Of a DNA stretch of 56,924 bases, positions 2,057 through 56,924 are shown in pieces; position 1 is the stretch's first letter; the number at the start of each line of letters is the position of its first letter. The stretch is from IMG/VR virus record IMGVR_UViG_3300032895_000004, positions 1 through 56,924 of that record. One strand, 5' to 3'. The translations under genes were made by a program, and so were the position numbers. The stretch is from a virus. Taxonomy: Duplodnaviria > Caudoviricetes. The notes under the pieces were generated by a model. It ran no database searches. It was not told the origin of the DNA and worked only from the letters and a program-made list of their open reading frames with translations.

Positions 2057-2065
2057 GGCTCGCGC

Positions 2066-2294: not shown

Positions 2295-2296
2295 AT

Positions 2297-2854
2297 CTAT
2301 AAGAGTCCCTGAGCGTCCGGACCGTGACAGTCGTCGGGAGATTTCTCGGGAAACTTCTGTGGATTTAGTGCGGCCCGAAGATTGGCTAGCACCTTAGTCC
2401 ACGTCGGACCCCCGTCGCGGGTGTCAGCCCAGTCCACTACGGCTTGACCAACTTTCCGCAGCCGGTCCCGCTCGGCTTGGAGGCCGCTGGCACGGTGCCA
2501 CTGCTCGTTCGCGCTGGTCCTAGCCTCAGTCAACATCTGCTGAAGCGTGACCCTCTCGGATTCGGAGTGAGCGAGATCACCCTTTGTCTGTCGCCACCCC
2601 AACTCGGCCTGGTTCCGCTCGGCCACCAGGGCGTTGAAGGAGCGGTTGAACAACCGAGCGACCATGAGAGCCGTGGCCTGTGTCTCGGCACAGATGACGC
2701 AGTGATCTCCGGCCCAGTTGTTGTCGCAAGAGTGGTCCGAGGCGAGCGACTTCACGAGGTCCTGCTCCTCGCGGATGGCCTGTTCGAGAGCAGCGGTGCG
2801 GACCGCCTCCTCGACCCGTTGCGTAAATGTGGACGATGAAACCGGATCAGGCAT
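2297..2854 (-). CDS. Coiled-coil hypothetical protein with a small Cys/His motif
   Basis: Start MPDPVSS after GGAGG; HSC...HCVIC motif followed by heptad-rich helix. Confidence 0.7.
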   Translation of the reverse strand: MPDPVSSSTFTQRVEEAVRTAALEQAIREEQDLVKSLASDHSCDNNWAGDHCVICAETQATALMVARLFNRSFNALVAERNQAELGWRQTKGDLAHSESERVTLQQMLTEARTSANEQWHRASGLQAERDRLRKVGQAVVDWADTRDGGPTWTKVLANLRAALNPQKFPEKSPDDCHGPDAQGLL

Positions 2855-4130
2855 GGGCCACCTCCGGGTACTCGATCTCGACGAGCCACATGCCGACGCG
2901 CTGCCGGCCGAGCTCGGCGTTGCGCTCGTCCAGGTCGATCCCGATGGCGTCGCGGCCGTGGCCAGTGGCGACGGCGAGAGTGGTCCCTGAACCGGCGAAG
3001 GGGTCAAGCACGACACCGTTACGCCAGGAGTCGTGGCCGCAGTCCGACCATCCGAGGGTCAGGCGCTCTGAGAAATCAGGAGCGTCCGTCGATGAGCCAG
3101 CCCTTGCATGGCGCTGGGGATCTCCGAGCGTTCGGTGCCCGTTGCCAGTGCTGTTGACGTGCTCCACCAGACGCCGGCTGGGTTCGCCACAGACCGTGCA
3201 GACCCGGCGCGGGCACATCGCCTCGATGGGCGTCACGCACAGGTCGGACGGGAAGGCGGCGTAGTGGCTGCCTTTGTAGGGCTCAGTGGGGATCACCCAG
3301 TAGTCGAGGGGTGGCGCTCCGGCTGGATGCGACGGCACTCGGGTCTGGTAGTTCGCCGTCTGGACCTCGACCGGGTCGCCGTGCTTGGGCCCGTTGGTCG
3401 TGCGGAACCGCTGGTCGACTGCCTCGGTGCGGACCGCGTCCATATCGAAATACCGCGTGCGGCTCTTGCAAGCGATCGTCAGATAACTCGTGGCCGGTCG
3501 GAACTTGTCGCTGAGCGCGCCGACAGGAGGGTTCGGGCGGCACCAGGCGACCACGTTGCGGACCCGCCAGCGGTCGGTCTGCCGTCCTGTGAGCGCGTTG
3601 AACCCGTAAGACAGAGCGACGGCGAACAGTTCGGGGACGAGCACCTTGGACTTGTCGAGTGGCCAGCCGTCCCTGTCGGACCGCGTGCGTCCGGGTCCGG
3701 TGCGCTCGCCCGCGCCGGGTTGGTTATACGCCGTGTTCATAGGCTTCGCTCGAGCCGCCCGGGCTTTTGTTGCGCTCCCGTCAAACGTCGGCTGACCGGC
3801 ACGCATCGCCCAGGTCCCGTTGCTCGGGTCGGCCGGGGTGTAGTCCCCACCAGCACCACCGGAACCGCTGTAGGTGTCCCCGAGCTCGACCACGATGGAG
3901 CCGTGCGGAGCCAGCACCCGCTCGAGCGCCTCGATCACGTCAAGCAGGGTGTCGAGATACTCGCCGGGCGTCGGCTCTGACCCGATCTCCTTGGCCTTAT
4001 CCGGGTGGTCCTTGGGCAGGTAGGAGCGCAGAGCCAGGAAGGGCGGTGAGGTCATCACCAGGTCGACCGAGGCGTCTGGCAGCTTCGCCAGTGCATCGAA
4101 CACGTCGCCCACGATGTAGCGGGCGGTCAC
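2847..4130 (-). CDS. Beta-class N4/N6 DNA methyltransferase with Cys-rich insert
   Basis: Motif IV TSPPF near the N-terminus, H.A.FP motif, motif I DPFAGSGTT at the C-terminus; insert CPRRVCTVC...WSDCGH. Confidence 0.93.
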   Translation of the reverse strand: MTARYIVGDVFDALAKLPDASVDLVMTSPPFLALRSYLPKDHPDKAKEIGSEPTPGEYLDTLLDVIEALERVLAPHGSIVVELGDTYSGSGGAGGDYTPADPSNGTWAMRAGQPTFDGSATKARAARAKPMNTAYNQPGAGERTGPGRTRSDRDGWPLDKSKVLVPELFAVALSYGFNALTGRQTDRWRVRNVVAWCRPNPPVGALSDKFRPATSYLTIACKSRTRYFDMDAVRTEAVDQRFRTTNGPKHGDPVEVQTANYQTRVPSHPAGAPPLDYWVIPTEPYKGSHYAAFPSDLCVTPIEAMCPRRVCTVCGEPSRRLVEHVNSTGNGHRTLGDPQRHARAGSSTDAPDFSERLTLGWSDCGHDSWRNGVVLDPFAGSGTTLAVATGHGRDAIGIDLDERNAELGRQRVGMWLVEIEYPEVAHA

Positions 4131-4245
4131 GACGGGCCCTTAGCGGGAGAGTCCATACCCCGGCTGGACACTGGCGCCGAACCTGGGCGAGCGTCCTCGC
4201 GGATAGCCCCCTCTCCCGCAGGAGATTCTACCTGGTCAGGGGCGG

Positions 4246-4389
4246 TTATCGGTCGCGGTAAGGCGCGCACGCCGCCTCCCACTGATCGTCGGTCACGCTG
4301 TCGGGCTCGGCGAGCTCGGCGTCGAGAACAGCCCACAGGCGACGTTCGGCCTCGTCCCGCGGTCTACTGGAAGTGAAAGAAACCGTCAT
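4246..4389 (-). CDS. Small hypothetical protein (47 aa)
   Basis: MTVSFTSSRPRDEAERRLWAVLDAELAE...; ATGA overlap with the upstream gene. Confidence 0.5.
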   Translation of the reverse strand: MTVSFTSSRPRDEAERRLWAVLDAELAEPDSVTDDQWEAACAPYRDR

Positions 4390-4613
4390 TCGGCCAACTC
4401 GCATATGCGCCAAAGGCGAGCCATGAAGGAACGCACCGCCTCGCGGATTTCGGGATCGTTCAGCGGGTCAGTCCACCCAGAGTCGGGCGAATCCCACGGC
4501 CTCAGGTTCCCCGGTGGGCCAAACCCGTTCCGAGCCATCACAGCCCGAATCCGCATGGGACGTTGAAGATCGCCCTCGCTTAGGACGAACTCAGGCAGCG
4601 GTTGAACCGTCAT
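4386..4613 (-). CDS. Hypothetical protein
   Basis: 75-aa ORF, ATGA-coupled on both sides. Confidence 0.6.
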   Translation of the reverse strand: MTVQPLPEFVLSEGDLQRPMRIRAVMARNGFGPPGNLRPWDSPDSGWTDPLNDPEIREAVRSFMARLWRICELAE

Positions 4614-4924
4614 GGCGCAGCCAACCAGTCGTCAACGATGGCCTCGGCTTGCTCGACTACGTGCTCCTCATCGAACGCCTGGTGGATCGCCTCGTCACTG
4701 AAGTAGTGCAGCCCCCACCAGTCAGGGATCGGCACCTGACGGTCACCGTGCCACCGCTCCCCTTCGGGCTTACGGTCCCAGACGTGGAACGGCGGCTCCC
4801 AGCGGTCCCGACACTCCAAGATCGACGCCGGGTTACGCAGCGCCGGGCGGGGGGCCTCTGAGCCGAGGATGGCCCAACCCCAGACCAAGACCTGAGTGCG
4901 CCAATCGGGGAGCAGATCAGGCAC
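4610..4924 (-). CDS. Trp-rich hypothetical protein
   Basis: GTG start overlapping the upstream stop. Confidence 0.6.
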   Translation of the reverse strand: MPDLLPDWRTQVLVWGWAILGSEAPRPALRNPASILECRDRWEPPFHVWDRKPEGERWHGDRQVPIPDWWGLHYFSDEAIHQAFDEEHVVEQAEAIVDDWLAAP

Positions 4925-5228
4925 CGACCCACACTCCCTCGCGAAAGAACCCATGTGTCCCGCAGCCCTCAGGCGGCACGCAGTAGATCGACGGGCTGAC
5001 GGTCAGTGGCTCCCTCGACACCAGCGTCCAGCCTTCGCCACCGAGCGGAAGCATCGTGTGAACTCGGTGGCCACCCAGGGCCGTTGAACAGTCGTGGAAC
5101 CACCAGACGTGCTCGCCGTCATCGTCAAGGATGCAGTTCGGCGGCTCCCCCGTCATCGGGTAGAGCACGTCGTTTCGAGGAGGCACCTGGTCGCCCGCGT
5201 TTCTTCCAGGAGTACTTCGCTCAGTCAC
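4917..5228 (-). CDS. DUF6527-like protein
   Basis: WTL....PLTVSPSI.C.....CG.HGF...G.W signature. Confidence 0.7.
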   Translation of the reverse strand: MTERSTPGRNAGDQVPPRNDVLYPMTGEPPNCILDDDGEHVWWFHDCSTALGGHRVHTMLPLGGEGWTLVSREPLTVSPSIYCVPPEGCGTHGFFREGVWVGA

Positions 5229-5397
5229 GACTCGCCTCCAACCGCGCGCGCTCCCTGCGGCTCTCGCCCCTGCGCTGGTCGATGAGCGCGAGCTGCTCGT
5301 CGGCGGACCGAGTGCGGCGCCTCTCTTTGAGCATCAGGGCCTTCTCCTGGCGACGTTCACGCCACTTCGGCCAGTTCTTGCGGAGATGATTACTCAC
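5221..5397 (-). CDS. Small basic helical protein
   Basis: VSNHLRKNW...RSADEQLALIDQRRGESRRERARL; GTGA overlap. Confidence 0.6.
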   Translation of the reverse strand: MSNHLRKNWPKWRERRQEKALMLKERRRTRSADEQLALIDQRRGESRRERARLEASRD

Positions 5398-6098
5398 GAC
5401 GGCCCCACGGTGAAGGAACTGGCCGATGATACCGGCCCGGTGATCGCGCCGGGAATCTGATTGTCCACGTAATAGAGCCCGTATGCGTAGTAGCCGTAGA
5501 GCGGCACCCCATCGGAGCCCTGGGTAAACAGCGGGGCGTTCAGCGACGTGCCGGCATCCGAGATGGTGACGTCGGGGAACGGCGAAGGTGGCGTGCCAAG
5601 GGTGGGGTTGGTCTCCACGATGAACAGCGCCCCGGTGCACGTCGTGTCCGGTACGGCGGCCTTGGCCGACCACGACTTGGCGGTGGTCTCGTTGTCGAAC
5701 ACCACCGTGGCCCCTTGCGTCGAGTAGGTGGGGGCCTGGATGAACACCTCGATGGTTTGGCCCGGTGAGCACAACGTGGGCGGCGCATACTGCGTCTCGC
5801 CGTTGTACTCGTCGGTGGAGTAGTAACAGTCGGCGGCCGGGCCCGAGGCGTCCTCCACGCCGGCCTGCACATAGGTGGCGAAGGTGTCGTCGGTGGACTG
5901 ATAGTCGACCCACGCCGCCACCCCGGGGAAGTCGGGCACCGTGAACGTCGCGTAGACGGTCGACACCGGCCCGCTGTAGGCGGTGTTTGCCGAGTAGCCG
6001 TCGACGTCGTAGGACACGCTGGCTCCCGCGTGCGCGCCGCCGATCAGCGCCATGACGGATACCGCCACGACGGCGACGAGACTTCGGATCACTCTCAT
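5394..6098 (-). CDS. Secreted G1-family (eqolisin-like) glutamic peptidase
   Basis: Signal peptide ending AHA; ordered motifs DGY, ATFTVP, AAWV, VQAGVE (catalytic Gln), PGQTIEV, NETT, ALFIVET (catalytic Glu), FPDVTISDA. Confidence 0.75.
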   Translation of the reverse strand: MRVIRSLVAVVAVSVMALIGGAHAGASVSYDVDGYSANTAYSGPVSTVYATFTVPDFPGVAAWVDYQSTDDTFATYVQAGVEDASGPAADCYYSTDEYNGETQYAPPTLCSPGQTIEVFIQAPTYSTQGATVVFDNETTAKSWSAKAAVPDTTCTGALFIVETNPTLGTPPSPFPDVTISDAGTSLNAPLFTQGSDGVPLYGYYAYGLYYVDNQIPGAITGPVSSASSFTVGPS

Positions 6099-6373
6099 GG
6101 GTGTTTCCTTTCTGGGATGACGAGCCGGTCCCGGATTGGGAACGGCTTGACGTTGGGTAGCACCAACGTTCCATGCTCGACAAGCAGCGGGGGCTGAGAC
6201 ATGACCTCGCCCAGCCGCTCGACGTAGCGAACTACTGATTCCACTGGCAGGGGGTGATCGACAACCCGGCCGTCGCCGGTGAAGAAGATCAGGTGGAACG
6301 TGCGCTCGTCACACACGAGACAGTGGTCCTTGGCAAACGCGTACCCGGCCGATGCCATCGAAGTCATTTCCAT
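6095..6373 (-). CDS. Hypothetical protein with CxxC
   Basis: Start after GGAGGG; DHCLVCDERTFH. Confidence 0.6.
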   Translation of the reverse strand: MEMTSMASAGYAFAKDHCLVCDERTFHLIFFTGDGRVVDHPLPVESVVRYVERLGEVMSQPPLLVEHGTLVLPNVKPFPIRDRLVIPERKHP

Positions 6374-6810
6374 TGGTCTCGCTCCCTCCAAGTCGCGCGA
6401 TCGTCTGGACACTCCAACCGCAGGCGCAAACCGCACGCTCGAGCTGTCGGGTACTCCTCGTCGGACAGCGGCACGTACAGGTGGCCGACCATCGACTTGG
6501 GGTTCCACCACCACCACTCGCCGCGCCCGGTGGCTCCCACCCCGACCAGGGCCAGGCGGGCAAACCGCTGGATGGTCACCAGATCGGCCTCACGTGCCCT
6601 GTAGAGGCCGACTTCGTACTTCCGGGGCCTCAGAGCCGTCAGCCACGCAGCGACGTGCCAGGAGCCACCACAGACCCCCTCCACGGTCAGCATGATCCCG
6701 AGTCGCTGGTCTCGTCCGAGCGGGTGAACCTTGGTCCACGGACTGAGCGAGAAGTGATGACGCGGCAACGGGTGGTTGAGCGCGTAGGTGCGTTGTTGCT
6801 CGATCCTCAC
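6364..6810 (-). CDS. Hypothetical protein
   Basis: GTG start after GAGGAGG, coupled to the upstream stop. Confidence 0.65.
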   Translation of the reverse strand: MRIEQQRTYALNHPLPRHHFSLSPWTKVHPLGRDQRLGIMLTVEGVCGGSWHVAAWLTALRPRKYEVGLYRAREADLVTIQRFARLALVGVGATGRGEWWWWNPKSMVGHLYVPLSDEEYPTARACGLRLRLECPDDRATWRERDQWK

Positions 6811-7223
6811 GTCGCCTCCTCGACAAGATCGGGCGGCACCTGGTCGAGGACCTGACACGACCGGGCGAACCGTTTGGTGGCCGAGTCCCAGCCGTACACA
6901 CACGCACGACATTCCCGGATCAGCCACTGACGGAAGCCCGGGTCATCGTCGTCGGGCAGGAAGGCGGTCTGGCGTTCACAGTGTGTGCATGTCGCGCCGT
7001 CGACCACCTTCTCACAGAGATGAAGCAGCGCCATGAGCGGGTCCAGGCCGGCCGCAACCTTCGTGCCCTTCTCGTAGAGCGCCACCGCCAGCCACACGAC
7101 GGGCTCCTCGTCGTGAGAGAACCGAAGTTGAATCGCGCCTGCGCCGGTCCGGCCGAGCATGTCGACAGCGGCGACAACTTGTTCGGCGTGTTCGGGGGGC
7201 ATCCCCTCGGGGCGTGTGATCAT
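6807..7223 (-). CDS. Hypothetical Zn-binding protein
   Basis: CTHC...C..C motifs; GAGGAG RBS. Confidence 0.75.
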   Translation of the reverse strand: MITRPEGMPPEHAEQVVAAVDMLGRTGAGAIQLRFSHDEEPVVWLAVALYEKGTKVAAGLDPLMALLHLCEKVVDGATCTHCERQTAFLPDDDDPGFRQWLIRECRACVYGWDSATKRFARSCQVLDQVPPDLVEEAT

Positions 7224-41953: not shown

Positions 41954-44122
41954 TCACGAGCGGGTGGCTGCCATACGGTCGCGCAGGTCCCTCACCGCAA
42001 GTCGACTGAGAGGCCCCCAGAGGCCCGTCAGAGCGGCGTAAGCGGCCTGGCCGGGGTCATCCTGCCCAGCACGCAGAGCGAGCTGCTCAGCGACCCCTGA
42101 GGCCACCAGGGATCGAGGGGCACCATCGGCCACGCGCGCCCGCATACGAGGCATCCGAGTGACCGGGAACCCGCCATAGTTGACGGCCAGCGCGGCGATC
42201 ATCTCCCAGTGATTGCCGACCCGCCGCCAGTCGGGCGAGATGACCGAGGCCCGAAGTAGCCGCACGTCCTCTTCGGTCGCCCAGGGACGAAGCGCCCCGC
42301 AGAACCACAGGCCGTGGACTCCGTCGCGCACCGCCACGTCGGCAATGGCCTTGCCGGTGTGGACGTAGTGCGCCTGCGCCTCGGGGGCCCACAAACTCAG
42401 ATCGGCGTGGGTCGTGTTGACCGTGATCGGCCCCGTCGGGATTTCGTCGCCTTCGGCGGTGAGCACATAGCCGGCCGTGAAGCGCCGATATGAGTACTTC
42501 CCGCCTTTCGGAGCGACGAGGCACTGACCTTGTGGTGAGCCGGTGTGGCACACGCCCCAGGGCACATGGCCGTAGACCCGGCCGTCCTCCTCGACGCGCA
42601 TCGGCGTCACTTCGTCGGGCTCGTCCATGAGGAACCAGCCGCTCGGCGGACGAGACGGTGCGGCGCTGGCGGTGAGAGCTCCGTCCGCACAGGGCTCGCA
42701 ACTCTCGAAGTCGAGCACGTGGATCGCCTCGATCGCCGCCTCCTCGCCATCACCCACCGGGCGTTGCGCGGGAATCGAGCCGGGGTCGGCCGAGCCGTCG
42801 CCCATGACGATGTACGCACCGGGGAAGGCGGGCTGCGTGCACATGGTCATTGCCATGATCGTGCCCTGCGTCAGCGTGGTGACCGGCATCGCCGTGTCAT
42901 CGAAGTTCGACGGGCCGATCGGAAGCGGCATCTCGATCGGAGCCTCGATGTCCTCGATCACGTTGCCCACATCGATCGAGATACCGAGACGGCCCATCTG
43001 CTCCAACGCCTGCGCCGCGTCGAGCGCGTCCTCCGTTGTCAGGAAGTGACCGTTCCCCGAGATGGTGGTGCCGTCACGGCTGATCGCCTCGATCACGCCC
43101 ACCAGCACCGCACCCGCATGACCACCGAACTCGGGCGTCTTGTTCAGGTACATGAGGGGCATCGGCGGATTGCGCCAGTCGAGGGCCTGAGGGGCGATGG
43201 TTCGACCGTCGTCGGTCAACGTCCCTTCGGTCACGGCGACCGGGATGGTGAACGCTGGCCCGAGCGCCGCAGGCGACACGTCCGGGGCAGCCGCGCTCGG
43301 GCCAGGAGTGGGGGCTGCGAACCCGGTCCCTCCCTGAACCGCAGCGGCGTCCTTCAGAGAGCCGTCGGCGTTCCAGTTGTCGGGAATCTTCGAGACGCAG
43401 CCCAGCGACTTGGCGCGCTTCTGAATGTGACGGCGGATCGCATCGTGATCGGCCGACCCTCGGCCCACCGCGCTGATCGCGCTGTCGACCGAGTTCTCAC
43501 CGGAGCAGGAGAGGATCGGATAGGACCCGTCGGGCATCGCTGCACCGGAGCTGGCCGCCTTGTCACGATCGGCTTGCGAGATGAACGCCCAGTACGGCAG
43601 CGCACCAACAGCGAGCCCGGGCGAGAGGTCGAAGCCTCGGCCGTAGCGGTACATGAGCAGCATGACGTCGTGTGGCGCGATGGGCTCGCCGCGTTGAGCG
43701 AAGGCGAGAATGCGTTGAATCTCAGCCTGCCCGTTGTTGCCTTCGGCCGTCGGCTGGTCCGTGTCATCGACCGGGGTCTCACCTGGTACGCGTATGCCGG
43801 GACAATCGCAGTTGACCATCGAGCACGGGCCGGTGTTCGTGCCGGTGTCCGTGTCGGCGTGCGCCGAGGCCAGATGGTTGCACTTCGACCCATCCGATTG
43901 CGTATTCAGGCATTGCACGTCGTCGGCCACGTCCCCGGCTGGTTCAACCCCGGGCGCACCATCCGACTGGGGCGGAGGAGGAGCAGCCGGTGGCGCCGAG
44001 TTCGGCGAGGGCGGGGGCGGTGCCGCTGCGGTCAAAGCCCGATAGAACTGATCGACCACTTCGGCGCGGGTGCCCACGGCGGTCAGTCTGCCAGATACCA
44101 GTGCCAGGGCGGCATCTTTCAC
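41954..44122 (-). CDS. Capsid maturation protease with extra N-terminal domains
   Basis: EG..T.DGR, H.GAV.VG.I, GISID, PAF, GRVYGH..W..CH.G, G.W..G.LRP, S.DWR, LAVN..GFP. Confidence 0.85.
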   Translation of the reverse strand: MKDAALALVSGRLTAVGTRAEVVDQFYRALTAAAPPPPSPNSAPPAAPPPPQSDGAPGVEPAGDVADDVQCLNTQSDGSKCNHLASAHADTDTGTNTGPCSMVNCDCPGIRVPGETPVDDTDQPTAEGNNGQAEIQRILAFAQRGEPIAPHDVMLLMYRYGRGFDLSPGLAVGALPYWAFISQADRDKAASSGAAMPDGSYPILSCSGENSVDSAISAVGRGSADHDAIRRHIQKRAKSLGCVSKIPDNWNADGSLKDAAAVQGGTGFAAPTPGPSAAAPDVSPAALGPAFTIPVAVTEGTLTDDGRTIAPQALDWRNPPMPLMYLNKTPEFGGHAGAVLVGVIEAISRDGTTISGNGHFLTTEDALDAAQALEQMGRLGISIDVGNVIEDIEAPIEMPLPIGPSNFDDTAMPVTTLTQGTIMAMTMCTQPAFPGAYIVMGDGSADPGSIPAQRPVGDGEEAAIEAIHVLDFESCEPCADGALTASAAPSRPPSGWFLMDEPDEVTPMRVEEDGRVYGHVPWGVCHTGSPQGQCLVAPKGGKYSYRRFTAGYVLTAEGDEIPTGPITVNTTHADLSLWAPEAQAHYVHTGKAIADVAVRDGVHGLWFCGALRPWATEEDVRLLRASVISPDWRRVGNHWEMIAALAVNYGGFPVTRMPRMRARVADGAPRSLVASGVAEQLALRAGQDDPGQAAYAALTGLWGPLSRLAVRDLRDRMAATRS

Positions 44123-44418
44123 GAGTCCTCCTCGTCCGGGGCGTCGGTCCCCTCGGTGAACAGCACGGTGAAGTCGCAGGTGCAGCCGTCATGGTCGCCG
44201 GGTGCGAAGTACTCCACCTCGGGCCAGCCGTAGGTGTTCTGAAGCTGCTCGTCGTCCCACTCTGTGAACTGCACGCCGTCGAGGTCAGCGTGGGGCTCGA
44301 AGGCGTGAAGTGGATCGCCATGCACCCATTGGTACGAGACCACGTCAGCGTTCGCGTCGGACAGAAGGTCGGACACGATGGGCCCGGTGCCGATCTGACC
44401 CAACAGGTCGTCAGCCAT
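44119..44418 (-). CDS. MuF-like minor head domain (separate ORF after the portal)
   Basis: YQWVHG....FEPH..LDG..F..WDD...PGDHDGCTCD; ATG overlaps the portal stop (GATGGCTGA). Confidence 0.7.
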   Translation of the reverse strand: MADDLLGQIGTGPIVSDLLSDANADVVSYQWVHGDPLHAFEPHADLDGVQFTEWDDEQLQNTYGWPEVEYFAPGDHDGCTCDFTVLFTEGTDAPDEEDS

Positions 44419-46783
44419 CGTCCGCTGACCCAACCGAGTCCGGAGAGCGGCCACCCGCGATGGCAAGGGCGCGCCGCACCACGCCGGTTGGCACCAGGGT
44501 TTCGGGATCGAGCGGAGCCTGCGTGCCCTTCGCTATCGACGGCTCGGAGCTGAACAGGGCCGAGGCGTACAACTGCTGTATCTGCTCGGCCAGGTAGTCC
44601 CAAGCCTGCCCACGAGCGGCCGCCATTTTGTCCCTGGCGGCCTGCAGCCTGACCGCGTTACCTCCAGGACCCGCAAGCAGTTGCGCCGTGCTTAGAGCGG
44701 CCTCCTGGGCCGTCTGGACCCACGCCTCGAAGGTGGGGCGAAGATCAGTCAGGTCGACGTGAGACGGAGAGGCCGTGACCCCGTGAGGATCGAGGCCGAA
44801 CCGCGCCGACACTTCGACGCCCAGTGCCCACGCAACTCGGGCGTTCGGCACGCTGCGGATCGCAGACGTCAGCGCCTTGTCGGTGCGCACCTTGGTCCGC
44901 AGCTTCGCCCCGGCGCGCTCGAGCTCGTGCATCAGCGTGGCCGACGCCAGCACTTGCAACCGGGTCCGAAGGTCACGGTCGATGGCGGTCAACTTGGCCG
45001 AGAGCTGGCGCGCTCGGTCGGTGATCCGAGGGTGAGCCTGCCCGAGCGACGACAGCCGGTGACCGTTCACCATCGTTACCGCGCCTTGCTCAGTGTGCGG
45101 CGGTGGACCGAGAGGTGGGCCGCCGACGGGATGCGGCGCAGCTTCGGGCGCGGGCGGCGCGCTCGACCCGGCGGGCACCGGCCCCAGCCCTGGTGGTGAA
45201 CCGGCTGGGCCGGTCGCCACCGGACCAGGAGGCGGCGTGCCGGGTGGAGGCTCGGGCACCATCGCCAGTCCACCTTTGACACCGGGCACGAGTCCCGCTC
45301 CCGTGATCGGGGGCACGGTCAGCGACGGGTCCATCCGGGCGGCGATGGCAAGAGAGATGTTGGCGGGCCACGCGCGCTGGTTGGCGATCATGCGTCCGAG
45401 CACCTCGATCGGGGTCGGCATGTCATCGTCACTGAACCCGGCGGCAGCACGAAGCGACGACCCGGACAGCTCACGCAGGTTGTAGAGCGATAGCGCGTTA
45501 GCGAACTTGTCGGGGTGAGTGACAATCTCGGTCGGGTCGTACCAGAGCAAAACCTGCGCAACGTCGGCCACGGTGTAGCCGCCGGCCGCGCCGCAGCGTG
45601 GGTCCGACATGAGCGCCATGCGGTAGTAGCCGACGGTGAGCGCATCGACGCACCGACGTACATGAGGCTCGATGTGATAGCGGAACGTGTTGTCATCGAC
45701 GGCCCAGGCGGTCCAGTGGTTCAGATCGGCCAGTCCTTCGAGCACGGCCTTGGGGAGGTCCACGCCGGTGGCGATACGCCCGATCAGCTCTTGGCGTTGC
45801 TGCGCCATGATGGCGTCGTACGGCCGGGCGAAGTCGATGAGCCTGATCTGCTGCAAAGCCTCACCGGGCCCACGCACCACGATCGGCACGACCGCCGACG
45901 CCACCCCCTCGTCGGCGATAGGCTCCATCATCGCCCGTTCGAGCTTGCCGGTGAACGATGAGTCCTCGTCGGTCTGCGCGTTGTTCGGGTTCTCCTCAAT
46001 GGAGAGCTCGGCTGGTATGCCCAACAGGCCGGAGGGCAACCGCGAGCGGCCCGAGGCGCGGATGCCCTTGCTGAGGATCATCAGCTCCTCGCACACGTCG
46101 AGGATCGAGCGCATCTCACTGTCGGCCAGCAGCTTGAACCGCGGGTGCGGCACCCACACTCGGGACACCACCGACGTGGCGGCTTCGAGTGGTATCCAGC
46201 CGTAGGCACCGCCGGGATCGACGGGGACCTCGCGCAGTTGCCAGACGTTGTTTTTGACCTGGACCTCGTCAATCGACCGGACGTTCCACTCGTCCTCGCC
46301 CGTCTCGGGATCGACGGTGCCGACGATGTACGCCTCGCCCGTCGTGGTGAAGGAAGTGCTCAGCGTCTCCATGTGCTCGGCCATCGCCACTCGGCCGTTG
46401 GCGAAGTCGCGCATGGCGTCGGCGCTGGCGTCGATCAGAGCTTGAGGGATACGGCCGGGAACCTCGGCGTTCGCCTCCTCGAAGGTCATGGGCTCGCCTT
46501 CGCCGTCCGCGGTAAACGCAGCGGGGTAGACGCGCATACGGCCGGCGGCGTTGGCTCGGTAGCGCACAGCGAAGGAGACCTCGGGGATGGAGTCACGGTA
46601 GGCCCACGAGTCGAGCTGCCACCGTTCACGAAGCAACTTCACCCGCCGAGCCTCGGGCTGCGAACGCAGGTCGATGGGCGCGGCAGCGGCCACCAGGCCT
46701 CGGTTGTTCATCGGCCCCTTGTTGAACACCGGCCGGCGGCGGGCGTTCCGACGCGGGAGGGGCAGCCGTAAGGATCGAGCCAT
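44411..46783 (-). CDS. Portal protein with a Pro-rich linker and C-terminal extension
   Basis: WQ..SW.Y.D.IPE..F, GEAY, RVW.PHP....ADS, R.R...G.L..P, SAVVP....GP, R.ATG.D.P...L.G....NHW.AW. Confidence 0.9.
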   Translation of the reverse strand: MARSLRLPLPRRNARRRPVFNKGPMNNRGLVAAAAPIDLRSQPEARRVKLLRERWQLDSWAYRDSIPEVSFAVRYRANAAGRMRVYPAAFTADGEGEPMTFEEANAEVPGRIPQALIDASADAMRDFANGRVAMAEHMETLSTSFTTTGEAYIVGTVDPETGEDEWNVRSIDEVQVKNNVWQLREVPVDPGGAYGWIPLEAATSVVSRVWVPHPRFKLLADSEMRSILDVCEELMILSKGIRASGRSRLPSGLLGIPAELSIEENPNNAQTDEDSSFTGKLERAMMEPIADEGVASAVVPIVVRGPGEALQQIRLIDFARPYDAIMAQQRQELIGRIATGVDLPKAVLEGLADLNHWTAWAVDDNTFRYHIEPHVRRCVDALTVGYYRMALMSDPRCGAAGGYTVADVAQVLLWYDPTEIVTHPDKFANALSLYNLRELSGSSLRAAAGFSDDDMPTPIEVLGRMIANQRAWPANISLAIAARMDPSLTVPPITGAGLVPGVKGGLAMVPEPPPGTPPPGPVATGPAGSPPGLGPVPAGSSAPPAPEAAPHPVGGPPLGPPPHTEQGAVTMVNGHRLSSLGQAHPRITDRARQLSAKLTAIDRDLRTRLQVLASATLMHELERAGAKLRTKVRTDKALTSAIRSVPNARVAWALGVEVSARFGLDPHGVTASPSHVDLTDLRPTFEAWVQTAQEAALSTAQLLAGPGGNAVRLQAARDKMAAARGQAWDYLAEQIQQLYASALFSSEPSIAKGTQAPLDPETLVPTGVVRRALAIAGGRSPDSVGSADDG

Positions 46784-47049
46784 CAGGTGTGCTCGGTCAG
46801 GAACCCAGCGACGGCCGACAACGCCAGCACGTAGCACCCCCACCGCACGATGCTCCACTCGAAGTGTGTCAGGGCGAGCAGGACGACGCCGAGCCACACA
46901 GAGCAACACCAGGGGCACTCAGCCCAATCACGCAGCTTGCCCCCGAGACGCTGGCGGATGGGCTCAGTGAGCAGGTCCCGACCGATGAACCACGCCAGGC
47001 GATAGATGCACAGCGCCACGATCAAGGCGTTGAGCGCCGTCCACCTCAC
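46783..47049 (-). CDS. DUF1360-like membrane protein
   Basis: YRL..FI..D..TEP.R......CPWC.SVW. Confidence 0.82.
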   Translation of the reverse strand: MRWTALNALIVALCIYRLAWFIGRDLLTEPIRQRLGGKLRDWAECPWCCSVWLGVVLLALTHFEWSIVRWGCYVLALSAVAGFLTEHT

Positions 47050-50782: not shown

Positions 50783-51182
50783 TCTGTGACTGTAGCCAGT
50801 CCGAGAAGCACCGAGATAGGAACCCACCCTCCGTCGCTCCAGACGAGGGCGTCCCCACACACAACGAATCGCAGCCGCAGCGCCAGATCAACAGCCGTGA
50901 CACCCCACGAGATAGGTGGCCCCGTCACCTTCAGACCGGAACCCCGTTCGGCCTCCATACAGGCCCAGTACCGCCGAGGGTCACCGAGGGCAGGGACCGG
51001 GTGGTCCGAGCGCTCGGACACTCGAACAACCCCATCAGGAAGCTGCGCACGGCGTCCCCCTCGGTGCCTTCGTCATCCCGCCGAGCGAGGACCCACGCCA
51101 CGTCGGCCTCCTCAAACCGACGCTGAATCATGCGAGCTCGAATCTTGTCGTCAGAGAGGTCTACTCTCCCGCCATTAGGCAT
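50752..51182 (-). pseudogene. Hypothetical protein, possibly split by a 1-nt deletion near 51022
   Basis: The protein-like frame switches at TTC GA/GTG TCC; total length is 3n+2. Could instead be two overlapping ORFs. Confidence 0.35.
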
Positions 51183-51711
51183 TGCCGACCACCGTGAGGT
51201 GCCGCGAGTACTTCGACCGCTTGGGGTTGGTCCAGTCCTCTGGCCGAGCCCGGCCCTGGTGGATGCGGAGTCCCTGGATCGTGTCGAAGATGCGCCCGCA
51301 GGAGCACTCACACCCCCGCGTGGGGGCTCTCAGGTTGGTTGGGTCGTACTCGGGGTGTTTGGTCCGCATGTGCCGGGCCAGCGCCGTGAAGGCGCGGTTG
51401 CAGCACGGGCATACGCCGTGGGCGAAGCGGTGACGGTCGCGAATCAGCCGTTGACGGGTCGCCTCGGCATCCGCCTCAGCGGCTTGAAGTTGGTCCGCCA
51501 GATGGCGCTCGCGGGCTTCGGCGTTGCGGAGCTTCTGCTCGGTCGTCTCGCCGAGCCACACGCGTGGATGACCTCTTGGGCAGTACCAGGTCTGCCCAGT
51601 GCGCTTGGTCTCGTCGTAGTAGCGGCGCGACATCGCGAAGTGCTGATCGCAGCCCGGCGCTCCGCACTCGACCGTCTCGTATTCCTTCTCGAGCCAGATA
51701 CTTGCCATCAA
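51175..51711 (-). CDS. Multi-zinc-finger coiled-coil phage protein
   Basis: C...GC...WYCPRGH, coiled coil, GVCPCCNRAF..L.RHM..KH, CSCGR.F....GL..H... Confidence 0.82.
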   Translation of the reverse strand: MMASIWLEKEYETVECGAPGCDQHFAMSRRYYDETKRTGQTWYCPRGHPRVWLGETTEQKLRNAEARERHLADQLQAAEADAEATRQRLIRDRHRFAHGVCPCCNRAFTALARHMRTKHPEYDPTNLRAPTRGCECSCGRIFDTIQGLRIHQGRARPEDWTNPKRSKYSRHLTVVGNA

Positions 51712-52073
51712 GTTCGCACCGCCTCGATCACGCGGCCACGAACCTCCAACCGTTCACCCAGGTCGCCCCAGCGCACCTGGACGACGATCAGGTGGGGGTC
51801 CTCTGCCAAGCATTCGGTCACCGTGGCTCGGAACACGTCGCCGGTGTCGCTGGTCTCCCACCACTCCATGCTGCCGTCTGGGGCGATATAGAACGACGCC
51901 TCGCCGTTGATCATGGAAGGGACCACCGGTGATACGAGCTGAGTCCAGTCATCGTCGTGTCCGGGACTCGAAGGCAAGTGCGCGGCGATATTGAGGACGG
52001 TCTGGCGAGCTTCCTCGACCCGTTCGGAATCTCACCCGCTCACGATCATGGCGTCATGCGAGTTCGTGCCCAT
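51708..52073 (-). pseudogene. Conserved phage protein with a premature TGA at codon 14
   Basis: MGTNSHDAMIVSG*DSERVEEAR...LVSP......NG..SF.IAPDGS.E.W..SD; ATG is coupled to the upstream stop; in-frame TGA at 52032-52034. Confidence 0.7.
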
Positions 52074-52330
52074 CAGGTTTCTCCTGTATCTTCGTCGCCA
52101 ACTTCGCCAAACTGAATGCGCTGGGCCAGTTCCAAAAGATCGGCCTGGGTCCGTCTGGCGCAGATGTCGGCCCACGCCAGCATCCGCTCCTCGGCGGCTT
52201 GCCGCTGCGCCCTGGCCTCGGGACCACCTATGTGGCGATCGAGAGCCTCCACCTCCTCAAGCGTGACGCCGAACCCTTCGCAGATCATGCGCTTTATTGC
52301 CTCGTCGGAGAACAGACTCGGATTAGACAA
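52073..52330 (-). CDS. Hypothetical protein
   Basis: TTG start overlapping the exonuclease stop. Confidence 0.55.
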   Translation of the reverse strand: MSNPSLFSDEAIKRMICEGFGVTLEEVEALDRHIGGPEARAQRQAAEERMLAWADICARRTQADLLELAQRIQFGEVGDEDTGET

Positions 52331-52853
52331 GGGACTGCACCGCCTCGTAGAGGGCCTTGGCCCACCGGGCGTCACCGAGGGCTGAATGCTCCAGGAACCC
52401 GCTACGGTCCACGCCCATCAGCTCGGAGAGCTTCGTGCTGTCCCAGGGCAACCCGACCTTGAGCCCCTGGGCTGTCAGGACGCCGACGCAGAGCGTCTCT
52501 ACGTCGATCAGGTGGTAGTGCCAGCCGGGGTCGATCTCGTACCGCCACATGAGACGGCGCAGCCGCTCCTCGTCGAAGTTAGGGACTGCTCCGACGAGGT
52601 GACGGCCACGGGTGAGGCGAGCCAGCATCGACATGGCCTCGTCCTTCTCGATGCGCTTGTGCGGGAGGTACCGCTCCTCGAAGTGCGTGATCTCCAACGC
52701 CCTCGGGTCGGCGAGCGCCAGCTCCCGTGCGGTCACGGGTAGCTGCCACTCATACGCCTGGCCGTCAACAATCAGACCGATTTCCCAGATGGGGTGCACG
52801 TCCGGGTCGAGGCCGAGCGTCTCGGTGTCGATGAATGCGACCTGTTCAGGCAT
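52323..52853 (-). CDS. DnaQ-like DEDDh 3'-5' exonuclease
   Basis: FIDTETLGLD, PNFD, WHYHLIDVE, HSALGDARW. Confidence 0.92.
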   Translation of the reverse strand: MPEQVAFIDTETLGLDPDVHPIWEIGLIVDGQAYEWQLPVTARELALADPRALEITHFEERYLPHKRIEKDEAMSMLARLTRGRHLVGAVPNFDEERLRRLMWRYEIDPGWHYHLIDVETLCVGVLTAQGLKVGLPWDSTKLSELMGVDRSGFLEHSALGDARWAKALYEAVQSLV

Positions 52854-53121
52854 CTTTGCCCCCTAACATTTCCGTGTGGACGTTATGAAGCGTGGTCGCT
52901 AGCTTTGTCAGCGTACCGCACGTCTCGGCCATTGATATGGCGTGGGCTTTGAACAGGTCGGCCGCTCGATCAAAGAAGGCGTTGATCCGCTCGACCATTT
53001 CCTCATCGCTCAGGTCGTCCAGCGAGTACCCGAACCAGCGGAAGTGCTCTCGGATCTGCGCGCAGACCTTGGCGTTCCTTCGCTCGAGTCGATGCTGCTT
53101 CCAGGCTCTCAGAGGAGTCAT
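52846..53121 (-). CDS. Hypothetical protein
   Basis: MTPLRAWK...FGYSLDDLSDEEM. Confidence 0.6.
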   Translation of the reverse strand: MTPLRAWKQHRLERRNAKVCAQIREHFRWFGYSLDDLSDEEMVERINAFFDRAADLFKAHAISMAETCGTLTKLATTLHNVHTEMLGGKDA

Positions 53122-53125
53122 CTGC

Positions 53126-53416
53126 TTAGGTCGGCTCCCTCGTGTAGAACCCGCGTTCGATCGTGAAATCCAGGCCAACGTCGCAAACAGAGCAACGACC
53201 TGAATAGCTGGCTGTGACCTCGCCCGTTTCGGCACCATAGACCTCATAGTCCTCGCGAAACGTTCGCAACGCCTCATGGTCGATGGGCGTATCGGCTTCG
53301 CGCCGAAGTCGGTCGAACTCCTCCATCGGCAAGGTCCCGTAGCCTTCATCGGCCTGCTTGCGGGCGTCGGCCCGTTGCTGCTCTGCGAGGTGGAGACACT
53401 TTGGGCAGATCGCCCA
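53126..53416 (-). pseudogene. 3' part of a Zn-binding phage gene interrupted by a 1.24-kb insertion
   Basis: Reads WAICPKC...YG.LP.EEF...TFREDYE.YG.....SYSG.C..C with no start (in-frame TAG six codons upstream). The missing start ATG AGC GCG AGC is at 54672-54661. Confidence 0.8.
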
Positions 53417-54660
53417 GCCCGTCGTAGCTGACTACTGGCACCAACACACCTCCCGGTGTGGACGCGCTCCCGAGATCCGAGGGGAGCGGCTCGTGGAACT
53501 CGTGCGGTCGGCACAAGCGCGGGGCGTCAAGTCGATCACCCTGCCGGATTAGCCGGGCATCAGCACCCGACCGAACGAGTCTGCCAAGTCTCGGTCGCAC
53601 CAGACGACAGGTTGGCCCAAGCCCGAATAGGGGGCCGGACAGCCGGTCTAGGCGGCCGCGGCGATCAAAAGTTCCGCAGAGGTTGTCTCTGAGGTGTGAC
53701 GCCGGAGGAGATGCTCGCGAGTGTGGGTGGCGAAGCGGTACGTGCACCCCTTCTCCATGCCACCATCCTCGATAAGCCGAGCCAACAACACTCCAACGGT
53801 CTCGTCGGCGCTCAGAACAGCCGGTCCGTGACTCCCGTGATCGCAGTCGCCGGGCACCCGCGACAACGAAACGATCATGAGGGCGTTGGACACAGGAACC
53901 ACCAAGTTCGCCACGCCCCCCGACGCTTCGACCTCGGCCAGTGCGTCAGCGATCCGGTCCGAGCGGAGTGCCGGAACCACCGGAATCGACCCGTCGGGCG
54001 CGCGCTTCAGGAGGTCCGTGAACTCCGGCTCGATCATCTTCCGGGCGATCAGCGCGGTAAGACCGCCGCGTTCGCCGTCCTCAGGCATCCTGCCACCTTG
54101 TGAGCTCCGCCGAGAGCTGTGTCTCGGCCAGTGCTTCTGCTGTGCGTGTATATACATCCTCGAGCGATCCGGGAGCAATCGGCCCGACCTGCCTGGGTAT
54201 ACCCGGGTCTGCGGTACGGCAATGCTCCCTGCGCCAGAGGCTGCCCTCCTCCGACCACATCTCAACGACCTCCCGATAGATAGGACTGCCGGACATCGTC
54301 TTGAGTGCGATGTGAAAGTACACCAATTCTCCCTGTTCACGGGCCATGTGGACATCCAGCCGATGTGCCTCCATCCCCAAGGTGCCCACTTTGAGCCGGA
54401 ACGGGTGCAGCTCCGGGCCCTCCCACCCCGGAAGACTCATGGTGTCGCACACTAGTTGACCAGGGAAAACGGCGGCCTAATTCGGACATAGAGCCTTCCC
54501 GCCCGGATCACCGTCTGGAAGCCGCGGAGGCTTGGGCAGCCCAGCCAACGTCCTCCCCAGCGAGGCGGCCAGTTCCTGATCGCGCTGCTCGAGGGCGTGC
54601 GGGTACACCCGAAGGGTGATCGACGGGTCGGCATGGCCGAGCCGAGCCCCAACCGTGACG
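53417..54660. other. Captured foreign segment (1244 bp; also at 814..2057)
   Basis: Bounded by GC on both sides. Both ends truncate genes: the integrase 3' fragment and the plus-strand Zn-ribbon gene. Confidence 0.78.
54477..54659 (-). pseudogene. Tyrosine integrase C-terminal remnant (copy 2)
   Basis: Duplicate of 1874..2056. Confidence 0.85.
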
Positions 54661-54899
54661 GCTCGCGCTCATGCCATCTGGCCTTCGTCTTCGAGAGGCA
54701 GTAGCTCGTCCCTCAACCTGAATGTGCCGTGACCGCACCACCGACAGGTAGATCCGAACCCGAAGTCGTCGGAGTGGAACTGCATGGCACTCTTGCGCTG
54801 GCACTCGGGGCAACGGCGAGACTCGGCTGATCGCCTTGCAGCCGTCCGGCTGTTGGCGGTAGCGGTGCGGACGTTCCCGTTCTGAAAAGGTAGCCATAT

Positions 54900-55457
54900 C
54901 TATAAGAGTCCCTGAGCGTCCGGACCGTGACAGTCGTCGGGAGATTTCTCGGGAAACTTCTGTGGATTTAGTGCGGCCCGAAGATTGGCTAGCACCTTAG
55001 TCCACGTCGGACCCCCGTCGCGGGTGTCAGCCCAGTCCACTACGGCTTGACCAACTTTCCGCAGCCGGTCCCGCTCGGCTTGGAGGCCGCTGGCACGGTG
55101 CCACTGCTCGTTCGCGCTGGTCCTAGCCTCAGTCAACATCTGCTGAAGCGTGACCCTCTCGGATTCGGAGTGAGCGAGATCACCCTTTGTCTGTCGCCAC
55201 CCCAACTCGGCCTGGTTCCGCTCGGCCACCAGGGCGTTGAAGGAGCGGTTGAACAACCGAGCGACCATGAGAGCCGTGGCCTGTGTCTCGGCACAGATGA
55301 CGCAGTGATCTCCGGCCCAGTTGTTGTCGCAAGAGTGGTCCGAGGCGAGCGACTTCACGAGGTCCTGCTCCTCGCGGATGGCCTGTTCGAGAGCAGCGGT
55401 GCGGACCGCCTCCTCGACCCGTTGCGTAAATGTGGACGATGAAACCGGATCAGGCAT
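54900..55457 (-). CDS. Coiled-coil hypothetical protein (copy 2)
   Basis: Duplicate of 2297..2854. Confidence 0.7.
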   Translation of the reverse strand: MPDPVSSSTFTQRVEEAVRTAALEQAIREEQDLVKSLASDHSCDNNWAGDHCVICAETQATALMVARLFNRSFNALVAERNQAELGWRQTKGDLAHSESERVTLQQMLTEARTSANEQWHRASGLQAERDRLRKVGQAVVDWADTRDGGPTWTKVLANLRAALNPQKFPEKSPDDCHGPDAQGLL

Positions 55458-56733
55458 GGGCCACCTCCGGGTACTCGATCTCGACGAGCCACATGCCGAC
55501 GCGCTGCCGGCCGAGCTCGGCGTTGCGCTCGTCCAGGTCGATCCCGATGGCGTCGCGGCCGTGGCCAGTGGCGACGGCGAGAGTGGTCCCTGAACCGGCG
55601 AAGGGGTCAAGCACGACACCGTTACGCCAGGAGTCGTGGCCGCAGTCCGACCATCCGAGGGTCAGGCGCTCTGAGAAATCAGGAGCGTCCGTCGATGAGC
55701 CAGCCCTTGCATGGCGCTGGGGATCTCCGAGCGTTCGGTGCCCGTTGCCAGTGCTGTTGACGTGCTCCACCAGACGCCGGCTGGGTTCGCCACAGACCGT
55801 GCAGACCCGGCGCGGGCACATCGCCTCGATGGGCGTCACGCACAGGTCGGACGGGAAGGCGGCGTAGTGGCTGCCTTTGTAGGGCTCAGTGGGGATCACC
55901 CAGTAGTCGAGGGGTGGCGCTCCGGCTGGATGCGACGGCACTCGGGTCTGGTAGTTCGCCGTCTGGACCTCGACCGGGTCGCCGTGCTTGGGCCCGTTGG
56001 TCGTGCGGAACCGCTGGTCGACTGCCTCGGTGCGGACCGCGTCCATATCGAAATACCGCGTGCGGCTCTTGCAAGCGATCGTCAGATAACTCGTGGCCGG
56101 TCGGAACTTGTCGCTGAGCGCGCCGACAGGAGGGTTCGGGCGGCACCAGGCGACCACGTTGCGGACCCGCCAGCGGTCGGTCTGCCGTCCTGTGAGCGCG
56201 TTGAACCCGTAAGACAGAGCGACGGCGAACAGTTCGGGGACGAGCACCTTGGACTTGTCGAGTGGCCAGCCGTCCCTGTCGGACCGCGTGCGTCCGGGTC
56301 CGGTGCGCTCGCCCGCGCCGGGTTGGTTATACGCCGTGTTCATAGGCTTCGCTCGAGCCGCCCGGGCTTTTGTTGCGCTCCCGTCAAACGTCGGCTGACC
56401 GGCACGCATCGCCCAGGTCCCGTTGCTCGGGTCGGCCGGGGTGTAGTCCCCACCAGCACCACCGGAACCGCTGTAGGTGTCCCCGAGCTCGACCACGATG
56501 GAGCCGTGCGGAGCCAGCACCCGCTCGAGCGCCTCGATCACGTCAAGCAGGGTGTCGAGATACTCGCCGGGCGTCGGCTCTGACCCGATCTCCTTGGCCT
56601 TATCCGGGTGGTCCTTGGGCAGGTAGGAGCGCAGAGCCAGGAAGGGCGGTGAGGTCATCACCAGGTCGACCGAGGCGTCTGGCAGCTTCGCCAGTGCATC
56701 GAACACGTCGCCCACGATGTAGCGGGCGGTCAC
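55450..56733 (-). CDS. DNA methyltransferase (copy 2)
   Basis: Duplicate of 2847..4130. Confidence 0.93.
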   Translation of the reverse strand: MTARYIVGDVFDALAKLPDASVDLVMTSPPFLALRSYLPKDHPDKAKEIGSEPTPGEYLDTLLDVIEALERVLAPHGSIVVELGDTYSGSGGAGGDYTPADPSNGTWAMRAGQPTFDGSATKARAARAKPMNTAYNQPGAGERTGPGRTRSDRDGWPLDKSKVLVPELFAVALSYGFNALTGRQTDRWRVRNVVAWCRPNPPVGALSDKFRPATSYLTIACKSRTRYFDMDAVRTEAVDQRFRTTNGPKHGDPVEVQTANYQTRVPSHPAGAPPLDYWVIPTEPYKGSHYAAFPSDLCVTPIEAMCPRRVCTVCGEPSRRLVEHVNSTGNGHRTLGDPQRHARAGSSTDAPDFSERLTLGWSDCGHDSWRNGVVLDPFAGSGTTLAVATGHGRDAIGIDLDERNAELGRQRVGMWLVEIEYPEVAHA

Positions 56734-56924
56734 GACGGGCCCTTAGCGGGAGAGTCCATACCCCGGCTGGACACTGGCGCCGAACCTGGGCGAGCGTCCT
56801 CGCGGATAGCCCCCTCTCCCGCAGGAGATTCTACCTGGTCAGGGGCGGTTATCGGTCGCGGTAAGGCGCGCACGCCGCCTCCCACTGATCGTCGGTCACG
56901 CTGTCGGGCTCGGCGAGCTCGGCG

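Follow-up and report, generated by a model that had tools for sequence, protein, structure and literature searches.

An apparently foreign 1,244-bp segment with an integrase gene remnant splits a small gene of an uncultured wetland phage

The window analysed here is the entire IMG/VR record IMGVR_UViG_3300032895_000004 (56,924 bases; Duplodnaviria, Caudoviricetes), which is catalogued as linear with a CheckV completeness estimate of 77%. Near its right end, a small phage gene was found to be split: its start codon and its body lie apart on the minus strand, and a segment carrying the 3' end of a tyrosine integrase gene lies between them. The open reading frames (ORFs) and other features of the locus, with lengths in nucleotides (nt) and amino acids (aa), are the following.

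54669 to 54899, minus strand: upstream phage ORF with cysteine pairs (CPEC...CRWC); its stop overlaps the orphaned ATG; weak match to phrog_12574
54661 to 54672, minus strand: orphaned start (ATG AGC GCG AGC, MSAS), with an ATG overlapping the TGA that ends the upstream ORF
53417 to 54660, no strand: inserted segment of 1,244 bp, very probably foreign, as it lies within the phage unit; junctions each ambiguous by 2 nt
54477 to 54662, minus strand: 3' stub of a tyrosine integrase gene, 61 codons (54662 to 54480) and stop (54479 to 54477)
54081 to 54452 (= 1478 to 1849), minus strand: complete ORF of the segment, 123 aa; orphan, weak DUF7718 lead
53648 to 54088, minus strand: complete ORF of the segment, 146 aa; orphan, coding bias good (GC3 0.78)
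53126 to 53416, minus strand: body of the split gene, 96 codons (WAICPKC...REPT) and stop; TGG GCG ATC TGC CCA AAG TGT begins at 53416

A preliminary description, made from the letters of the window, had proposed that the ATG AGC GCG AGC at 54672 to 54661, coupled to the upstream gene by an ATGA overlap, was once joined to the reading frame that begins at 53416. Both pieces are present as described. The upstream ORF ends in ...EDEGQMA* and its TGA is shared with the orphaned ATG (from 54672). The body reads WAICPKCLHLAEQ...REPT on the minus strand from 53416 to 53126, in frame to the stop, and the gap between the MSAS start (54672 to 54661) and the WAICPKC body (53416 to 53126) is 1,244 bp. 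The insertion inactivates the split gene. The orphaned ATG now begins a 54-codon ORF in another frame, an in-frame TAG lies five codons before the W of the body with no start codon in between, and the most that the body could yield is a product of 66–68 aa without the first CxxC.

Scanning IMG/VR with the 96-aa body gave three relatives (L005, L006 and L007, with 41, 35 and 58% identity), whose ORFs are of 101 aa, of 110 aa and, in one case, with an internal ATG. Their N-termini are MSASNWATCPKC, MSADNWAICPKC and MSDDNWAICPKC, that is, of the MSASNW, MSADNW and MSDDNW types. All three begin M-S-[AD]-[SD]-N-W-A-[IT]-C-P-K-C, as had been predicted for intact homologues, with one Asn more than the two pieces of the window together. 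In L005, the GTG start of the intact gene overlaps the upstream stop (GTGA, 5986 to 5989), which is the same coupling as that of the orphaned ATGA. Since 3/3 relatives start MS[AD][SD]NWA[IT]CPKC, the orphaned MSAS is, as judged by sequence, the missing N-terminus of the split gene, with the Asn codon as the only one unaccounted for. Starts of the type M-S-[AD]-[SD] occur at 10 of the 113,848 strand-positions of the window, and two of the ten are the orphaned start in its two copies. The chance of such a start lying at most 3 nt from the break on the right strand was estimated to be about 6e-4, the break being set independently by the end of the integrase homology.

The alignment of the split gene with its relatives contains 20 invariant columns, including the four cysteines C4, C7, C75 and C78. 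An AlphaFold model of the protein is confident (pLDDT 80.3). No informative Pfam or PHROG match was obtained for it, Foldseek returned zero matches in the PDB at E ≤ 0.001, and the search against BFVD gave one unnamed 201-aa protein (E 1.3e-6) that is uninformative for function. The gene content common to the window and the three relatives is the split gene alone, plus one weak methyltransferase match, and the split gene is a wandering small gene of mosaic genomes.

The right end of the segment lies inside an integrase gene, at an arbitrary point of the donor. The stub is cut immediately before AVTVGARLGHADPSITLRVY.H, and about 330 upstream codons are absent, including the HxLRH box of the relatives. 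It matched the integrase profiles phrog_7685 (E 0.001) and phrog_1 (E 0.0036) at their C-terminal ends only, and gave no match in a Pfam search: the complete catalytic domain of PF00589 (about 170 positions) is absent and only the last 60 residues or so (LGH...Y.H) are kept. Scanning species-representative genomes with the stub confirmed at least 42 loci at tblastn E ≤ 1e-3, from at least 600 pattern matches. The best four loci among the matches listed show 84–90% aa identity over residues 1–40, and all are from metagenome-assembled genomes of Acidimicrobiaceae/Acidimicrobiales; the closest among them, with 88–90% aa identity, belong to Acidimicrobiaceae. In addition, an exhaustive search of representatives returned 204 proteins at E ≤ 0.001, of which the full-length ones (about 380–410 aa) were matched over their last 45 residues or so.

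When aligned to four of these loci, the stub showed 88% identity to L008, a 395-aa open frame that runs off the contig start, and 76, 73 and 67% to L009–L011, the last of which is interrupted by an in-frame stop. It matches the end of open frames of about 390–405 codons, and the relatives of 393–405 aa contain PF00589 positions 5–171 plus PF14659. The homology starts exactly at AVTVGARLGH. Ahead of this motif the relatives carry HLHALRHFSATQAIAAGFD, where the window has the stop of the upstream phage ORF and the MSAS start; the box HLHALRHFSAT is likewise present in the integrase relatives and not in the stub. At the DNA level, the blastn matches of 1 to 2400 to integrase loci all terminate at 2058/2059, and the integrase homology stops at most 2 nt from the phage start codon. 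By these alignments, the stub is a remnant of a member of the tyrosine recombinase/phage integrase family and not a working enzyme.

No match to PF00589 (tyrosine recombinase) or PF00239 (serine recombinase) was found in the record at E ≤ 1, with positive controls in 14/14 and 13/14 genomes. Since the segment terminates on the right in sequence matching the 3' end of full-length Acidimicrobiaceae integrases, and since the record itself encodes no integrase, the segment is very probably foreign DNA inserted into a phage gene. The preliminary description had the insert cut mid-gene at both ends. This was borne out at the right end by the integrase stub, and not at the left end, where the frame concerned (686 to 949) has a weak coding signal, as discussed below.

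Besides the stub, the segment contains two complete ORFs, both with reasonable coding bias. Neither the 123-aa nor the 146-aa ORF matched Pfam, PHROGs, PADLOC or NCBIfam, either for a defence function or for a known family, and neither has relatives in viral contigs. For the 123-aa ORF, only itself was found in a 5.8-billion-protein set searched in the 'near' length band. An Atlas lead connects it to a cluster of DUF7718 (PF24839), with a feature score of 0.86, 190 shared features and a TM of 0.68; against the DUF7718 Pfam profile, the gathering score was not reached and there was no match even at E ≤ 10. The 146-aa ORF gave nothing usable from Atlas, and its model has a pLDDT of 0.41.

Two kinds of mobile element were considered as the source of the block. 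The insert flanks read ...GATCGCCCA and GCTCGCGCT..., and no terminal inverted repeat was present at 53417/54660 among 25 of the 36 inverted-repeat pairs (seed 7), nor did a target duplication flank both insert ends among 20 of the 27 direct-repeat families. No transposase or homing-endonuclease domain was found among the ORFs of the segment with Pfam, PHROG and NCBIfam, and Rfam gave 0 matches in 1 to 2500. A transposable element (an insertion sequence (IS) or a miniature inverted-repeat transposable element (MITE)) was therefore rejected, having neither terminal inverted repeats, nor target duplication, nor transposase, and so was an intron or homing element, for which there is no RNA family and no homing-endonuclease domain.

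The segment is present twice in the window, and the second copy involves the left end of the record, where three further features are needed.

1 to 811, no strand: unique leader, putative left flank of the donor; a separate 842-nt contig in the second assembly
812 to 2057, no strand: left-end copy of the segment, 100% identical to 53415 to 54660; part of the following turn of the phage unit, which is reached from the leader
53415 to 56924, no strand: wrap-around repeat, identical to 812 to 4321

When the record was compared with itself base by base at an offset of 52,603, 812 to 4321 and 53415 to 56924 proved identical over 3,510 bp, with zero mismatches, up to the last base of the record. Therefore, the record wraps around a 52,603-bp unit (812 to 53414), which it covers slightly more than once, with an 811-base leader in front. 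The preliminary description had rightly seen a copy of the segment at the left end and had taken it to continue into unique sequence there. The identity extends beyond 2057/54660, and thus the left copy is the same phage site on the next turn; only 1 to 811 is unique, being 27% identical to 52604 to 53414 and having a longest exact match to the unit of 14 nt.

The joins were then compared with a second assembly, the Logan contigs (k = 31) of run X1, a public wetland metagenome run that is probably the source of the record; all 272 sampled words of 52700 to 55400 are present in it. This assembly was compared with 1 to 7000, and its independence lies in the method and not in the data. The leader is an 842-nt dead-end contig with a depth of 3.65, which covers 1 to 841 and ends one base left of the first base of the window. 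The segment and the phage DNA beyond it are in a 9,563-nt contig (depth 11.4) that starts exactly at 812 and is unbroken across 2057/2058, and the remaining phage DNA is in a 40,052-nt contig (depth 12.1) that terminates with 53385 to 53414 followed by 812 to 841, so that both junctions to be checked appear in the k = 31 contigs. In the graph, the segment has two entries, from the leader (3.65×) and from the phage (12×), and one exit. Short contig pieces (24–33 nt, with 2–4 mismatches) and loose ends at 338 and 556 were taken as chance matches in GC-rich DNA. No contig with the empty allele was seen among the Logan contigs of run X1, which drop rare variants.

These contigs make it highly improbable that the record is a chimera in which the assembler threaded bacterial sequence into a phage that does not carry the segment. 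Such an artefact would take advantage of the segment being a graph repeat with two entries, and the contigs come from one run and are not raw reads. However, two assemblers gave the same joins, 2057/2058 is crossed, with thousands of bases to spare, by a k = 31 contig at phage depth, the 40-kb phage contig continues into the segment with no branch to an empty allele, and 272/272 sampled words of the region are in the run. De Bruijn joins, moreover, require junction-spanning words in the reads.

With respect to the leader, the graph fits equally well a donor replicon next to free phage, or a phage that has integrated into the donor by way of the 1.25 kb common to the two; either arrangement requires a branch from the segment into the right side of the donor. 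In the second arrangement, the join between leader, segment and phage would be physically real and due to homologous (Campbell-type) recombination across the captured stretch. The assembled order leader–segment–phage–segment–phage is that of the left side of an integrant, the independent assembly has no other exit from the segment, identity across the 1,246 bp of the shared stretch is 100%, and an integrant adds equally to both phage arms, in keeping with the depths of 11.4 and 12.1. Nevertheless, an integrant is unlikely: it also requires the junction from segment to donor right flank, which was not seen, and explains nothing beyond the two-molecule model, and no lysogeny functions were detected. 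Short-read graphs are unable to link across 1.25 kb, so the assembled path has no weight. That the path is literally true, with an integrase-less phage using its captured 1.25-kb homology to integrate in a host replicon, appears a shade less likely still. If it were true, a single illegitimate capture would have opened an improvised way to lysogeny or persistence, and bases 1 to 811 would be the bacterial side of a host–phage junction, that is, a physical link between the phage and an uncultured Acidimicrobiaceae lineage.

The contig depths bear on another possibility, namely that bases 1 to 811 come from a minor variant of this phage, a mosaic sibling that differs to the left of the segment, and not to a bacterial donor. 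The leader runs into the segment and then into phage DNA in a graph with no other exit, its ORFs are orphans like many phage genes, and its GC content (62.6%) is near that of the neighbouring phage region (62.2%, 52000 to 53414). Such a variant should make the 9.5-kb contig about 3.65 deeper than the 40-kb contig; the observed depths of 11.4 and 12.1 show no such excess, which argues against it. In addition, the 40-kb contig is unbroken, so the variant would have to go without rejoining within 40 kb, and the divergence at most 2 nt from the point where the split gene resumes would be a coincidence unless the leader is native to the segment. A variant phage is thus regarded as quite improbable.

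The sharp boundary at 812 could also be read as the edge of an attachment site, with the leader as bacterial DNA at the attL of a prophage and the segment as the decayed integration module of the phage itself. An integrase remnant about 1 kb from the boundary, and identity between the two contexts that begins at one base, are what such a reading would lead one to expect. It is very unlikely, since the record has no functional tyrosine or serine recombinase and no tRNA or RNA gene at the boundary (0 tRNA; 0 Rfam matches in 1 to 2500), and since no attR-type branch leaves the 40-kb contig, which runs the full 30 nt into the segment (with the reservation that contigs drop rare variants). It would also leave unexplained why a gene that is intact in 3/3 relatives is split, and why the integrase is cut exactly at the start codon of that gene.

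The reading preferred is that of a separate donor, with the leader as its flank joined to the phage only by the assembler. It is preferred because it takes the fewest assumptions and explains the divergence starting at most 2 bases from the point where the split gene resumes, and it is considered somewhat more probable than the remaining readings taken together. The preliminary description had already named 1 to 813 as the donor locus; this is the most economical reading of the 3.65× dead-end contig, short of proof, with the right flank not found.

At the left junction, the identity to the leader copy begins at 53415 (= 812) and the W codon occupies 53414 to 53416, which gives an overlap of 2 nt (53415–53416). 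At the right junction, two bases are common to the Ser codon of MSAS (54663 to 54661) and the Ala codon of the integrase (54662 to 54660). On the recipient side, MSAS followed by WAICPKC equals the N-terminus of the homologues minus the Asn codon, so that at most 3 nt were lost. Aberrant excision was rejected, as both junctions are within one gene. An illegitimate capture with two ends is the probable nature of the event.

The split, the foreign integrase stub, the lack of mobile-element hallmarks and the topology of the graph are direct observations, and from them we infer the mechanism, the direction of transfer, the donor and the mis-join as follows. A 1,244-bp foreign fragment would have interrupted a small early-region gene between codons 4 and 5–6 of a protein of about 100 aa with two CxxC pairs. 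The fragment, which holds two orphan ORFs in full and the final 60 codons or so of a tyrosine integrase gene, would derive from an Acidimicrobiaceae-like replicon, the host of the phage or a mobile element in that host being the most likely source. Illegitimate recombination would have acted at both ends, either as end-joining capture at a double-strand break or as two template switches, leaving a scar with about 2 nt of microhomology at each junction and a loss of at most one codon (Asn). The interrupted allele would now be fixed or nearly so in the phage population. Bases 1 to 811 would be the native left flank of the segment in the donor, present in the same sample at about one third of the phage depth, and the assembler would have moved from the donor flank into the phage by way of the 1.25-kb repeat common to both. 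Taken as a whole, capture from an Acidimicrobiaceae-like replicon with inactivation of the gene and a donor-derived leader is the best explanation at hand, and a reasonably likely one.

Several points weigh against this explanation. The junction evidence consists of contigs, not individual reads, and the assignment of a donor rests on one low-depth tip. The overlap of the 40,052-nt contig with the segment is 30 letters, one fewer than had been set for calling a junction bridged, although this is the expected yield of a k = 31 graph at a node with two entries. No contig of run X1 branches at 2057/2058 into a right flank of the donor, in an assembly that drops rare variants; the loss of such a branch at 3.65×, through a nearby coverage gap and tip clipping, was roughly estimated at 10–20%. 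A 32-nt exact probe ending at 2057 gave 0 matches in metagenome and genome contigs, and a 31-nt exact probe of the leader gave 0 matches in metagenome contigs. These scans of contig collections, as well as that with a 35-nt exact probe on the phage side of the left junction (0 matches in viral contigs for the same phage elsewhere), may exclude the own record of the window or very close ones.

The frame that crosses 811/812 is a further such point. The preliminary description had counted 686 to 949 as an intact plus-strand gene; it turned out to be an open frame only, with a weak coding signal (GC3 0.68, GC2 0.53–0.57), and the longer frame 611 to 949 (a 112-aa ORF) is without homologue, with 9 candidates and none scored in the 5.8-billion-protein set and the length band given above. 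Therefore, the frame does not prove native contiguity of leader and segment. A 92-aa ORF of the leader (209 to 487, minus strand) has no relative in viral contigs, and only itself was found in that protein set and band. The microhomology, finally, was part of the original proposal of capture from another replicon. The capture is upheld by the foreign integrase stub, whereas the microhomology amounts to only 2 nt per junction. The right one is deduced from relatives, among which the closest four have Ala in two and Pro in the other two, and 2 nt is near chance, as about 0.16 of random joins have at least 2 nt. About 2 nt per junction fits end joining or template switching, and a mechanism driven by microhomology is not thereby proven. 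The host assignment also belongs here, as it rests on about 120 nt or 40 aa of one gene family, itself mobile.

The donor is not in the collections searched. To the left, its locus continues as the 3.65× dead-end contig; to the right, no continuation was found in the contigs of the run or in three collections. In five genomes searched first, substantial matches were in the stub region only. Among 92 genomes of the family with the best integrase relatives, 26 matched, every substantial match was within 1928–2057, and the best one reached up to 82% identity over 117 nt. One of the 26 (G086) carries an unpublished flag, and none of the conclusions depends on this genome. Outside the stub region, both sets gave a few chance-level matches of 23–73 nt. 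The type of integrase points to an Acidimicrobiaceae-like bacterium, or its mobile element, with a GC content close to that of the phage, and thereby provides a host lead, Acidimicrobiaceae, for an uncultured wetland phage. As a separate observation, the closest Acidimicrobiaceae genome, that of L009 (G002; C10, C15 and C18), contains three separate copies of this integrase type, with 76–78% DNA identity to the stub; by these three copies, the family is multi-copy, and it is probably itself mobile in these bacteria.

Illegitimate recombination has long been held to generate phage mosaicism (PMC3706429), and it has been linked to specialised transduction (PMC13492144). Like the mosaic junctions of tailed phages, especially actinobacteriophages, the joins of the window bring in foreign DNA irrespective of gene boundaries, without the hallmarks of a specific site and with little or no homology. 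The split gene also resembles the small genes found in otherwise unrelated genomes, as its three relatives share just that gene with the window. Unlike most mosaic junctions described, which are old, visible only at the protein level and tidied by selection to gene boundaries, the event of the window is raw: a gene is destroyed, a gene stub is left, and the same sample contains a second copy that is 100% identical and differently flanked.

Specialised-transducing phages such as lambda gal and bio also carry bacterial DNA acquired by illegitimate recombination. In these phages, the host DNA adjoins attP and stands in place of phage DNA that belonged to the opposite end of the prophage. In contrast, the junctions of the window are at most 3 nt apart inside one phage gene, nothing else is lost and there is no integrase. 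The scar may be likened to that left when a double-strand break is repaired by end joining, non-homologous or microhomology-mediated, with capture of filler DNA: a fragment of arbitrary ends, 0–2 nt of microhomology and few bases lost. The same scar would, however, also result from two template switches during replication. End-joining products resemble this scar, and Ku/LigD occur in Actinomycetota and in some mycobacteriophages. Insertion sequences, MITEs, homing endonuclease genes and introns can likewise interrupt a phage ORF as a discrete block of about 1.2 kb, but the block of the window has no repeats, transposase, homing domain or intron RNA, and it ends in a truncated gene.

The process is a known one, of which this event is a clean and recent case, and knowledge of phage evolution is unchanged by it. 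Its value lies in the freshness of the scar. Illegitimate recombination is the assumed engine of phage mosaicism and is almost always deduced from old junctions cleaned by selection, whereas here the break in a conserved phage gene follows codon 4, that in a donor gene falls within a domain, and each junction can be located to within 2 nt. The 100%-identical copy with a different flank in the same sample adds to this value. The locus is thus a natural example for asking which joining pathway acts and what the insertion costs the phage, in which the interrupted allele is the only one seen.

The wrap-around also concerns the cataloguing of the record. The phage genome is likely complete despite being listed as linear and 77% complete: the 811-base leader shifts the repeat away from the left end, and the repeat was thereby probably missed by terminal-repeat detection. 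A probably complete 52.6-kb genome listed as a 77%-complete linear fragment is a practical pitfall, as a leader can mask a wrap-around. At position 4304 (= 56907), the main contig of the independent assembly (depth 11.4) has C where the window has G. This position is 17 bases from the end of the wrap-around, and a polymorphic site there may explain why the original contig stopped.

As for the remainder of the genome, nearly all ORFs with coding bias are on the minus strand, and the GC content is 65.5%. PHROG profiles identified the large terminase, the portal, the major head protein and the major tail protein, and a DNA methyltransferase and a 3'–5' exonuclease-like protein are encoded near the split gene. 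No lysogeny functions were detected when the record was searched for the integrase families PF00589 and PF00239, and 0 tRNA genes were found in it; the record represents a tailed phage without integrase that is probably virulent. Among annotated phages, a blastn search with 51000 to 56924 gave four records, each with 1–2% query coverage, at the methyltransferase or at one hypothetical gene.

The methyltransferase (55450 to 56733 = 2847 to 4130, minus strand) is a 427-aa N6/N4 DNA methyltransferase (PF01555, phrog_67) whose profile match falls in two stretches across residues 22–305, which suggests a large insertion inside the domain. Two large head genes are neighbours on the minus strand (41957 to 44122 and 44414 to 46918). 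One of them is the portal (phrog_776), and the C-terminal half of the other matches profiles of portal, head maturation protease and virion structural proteins, so that this second gene beside the portal may encode a fusion or a MuF-like protein.

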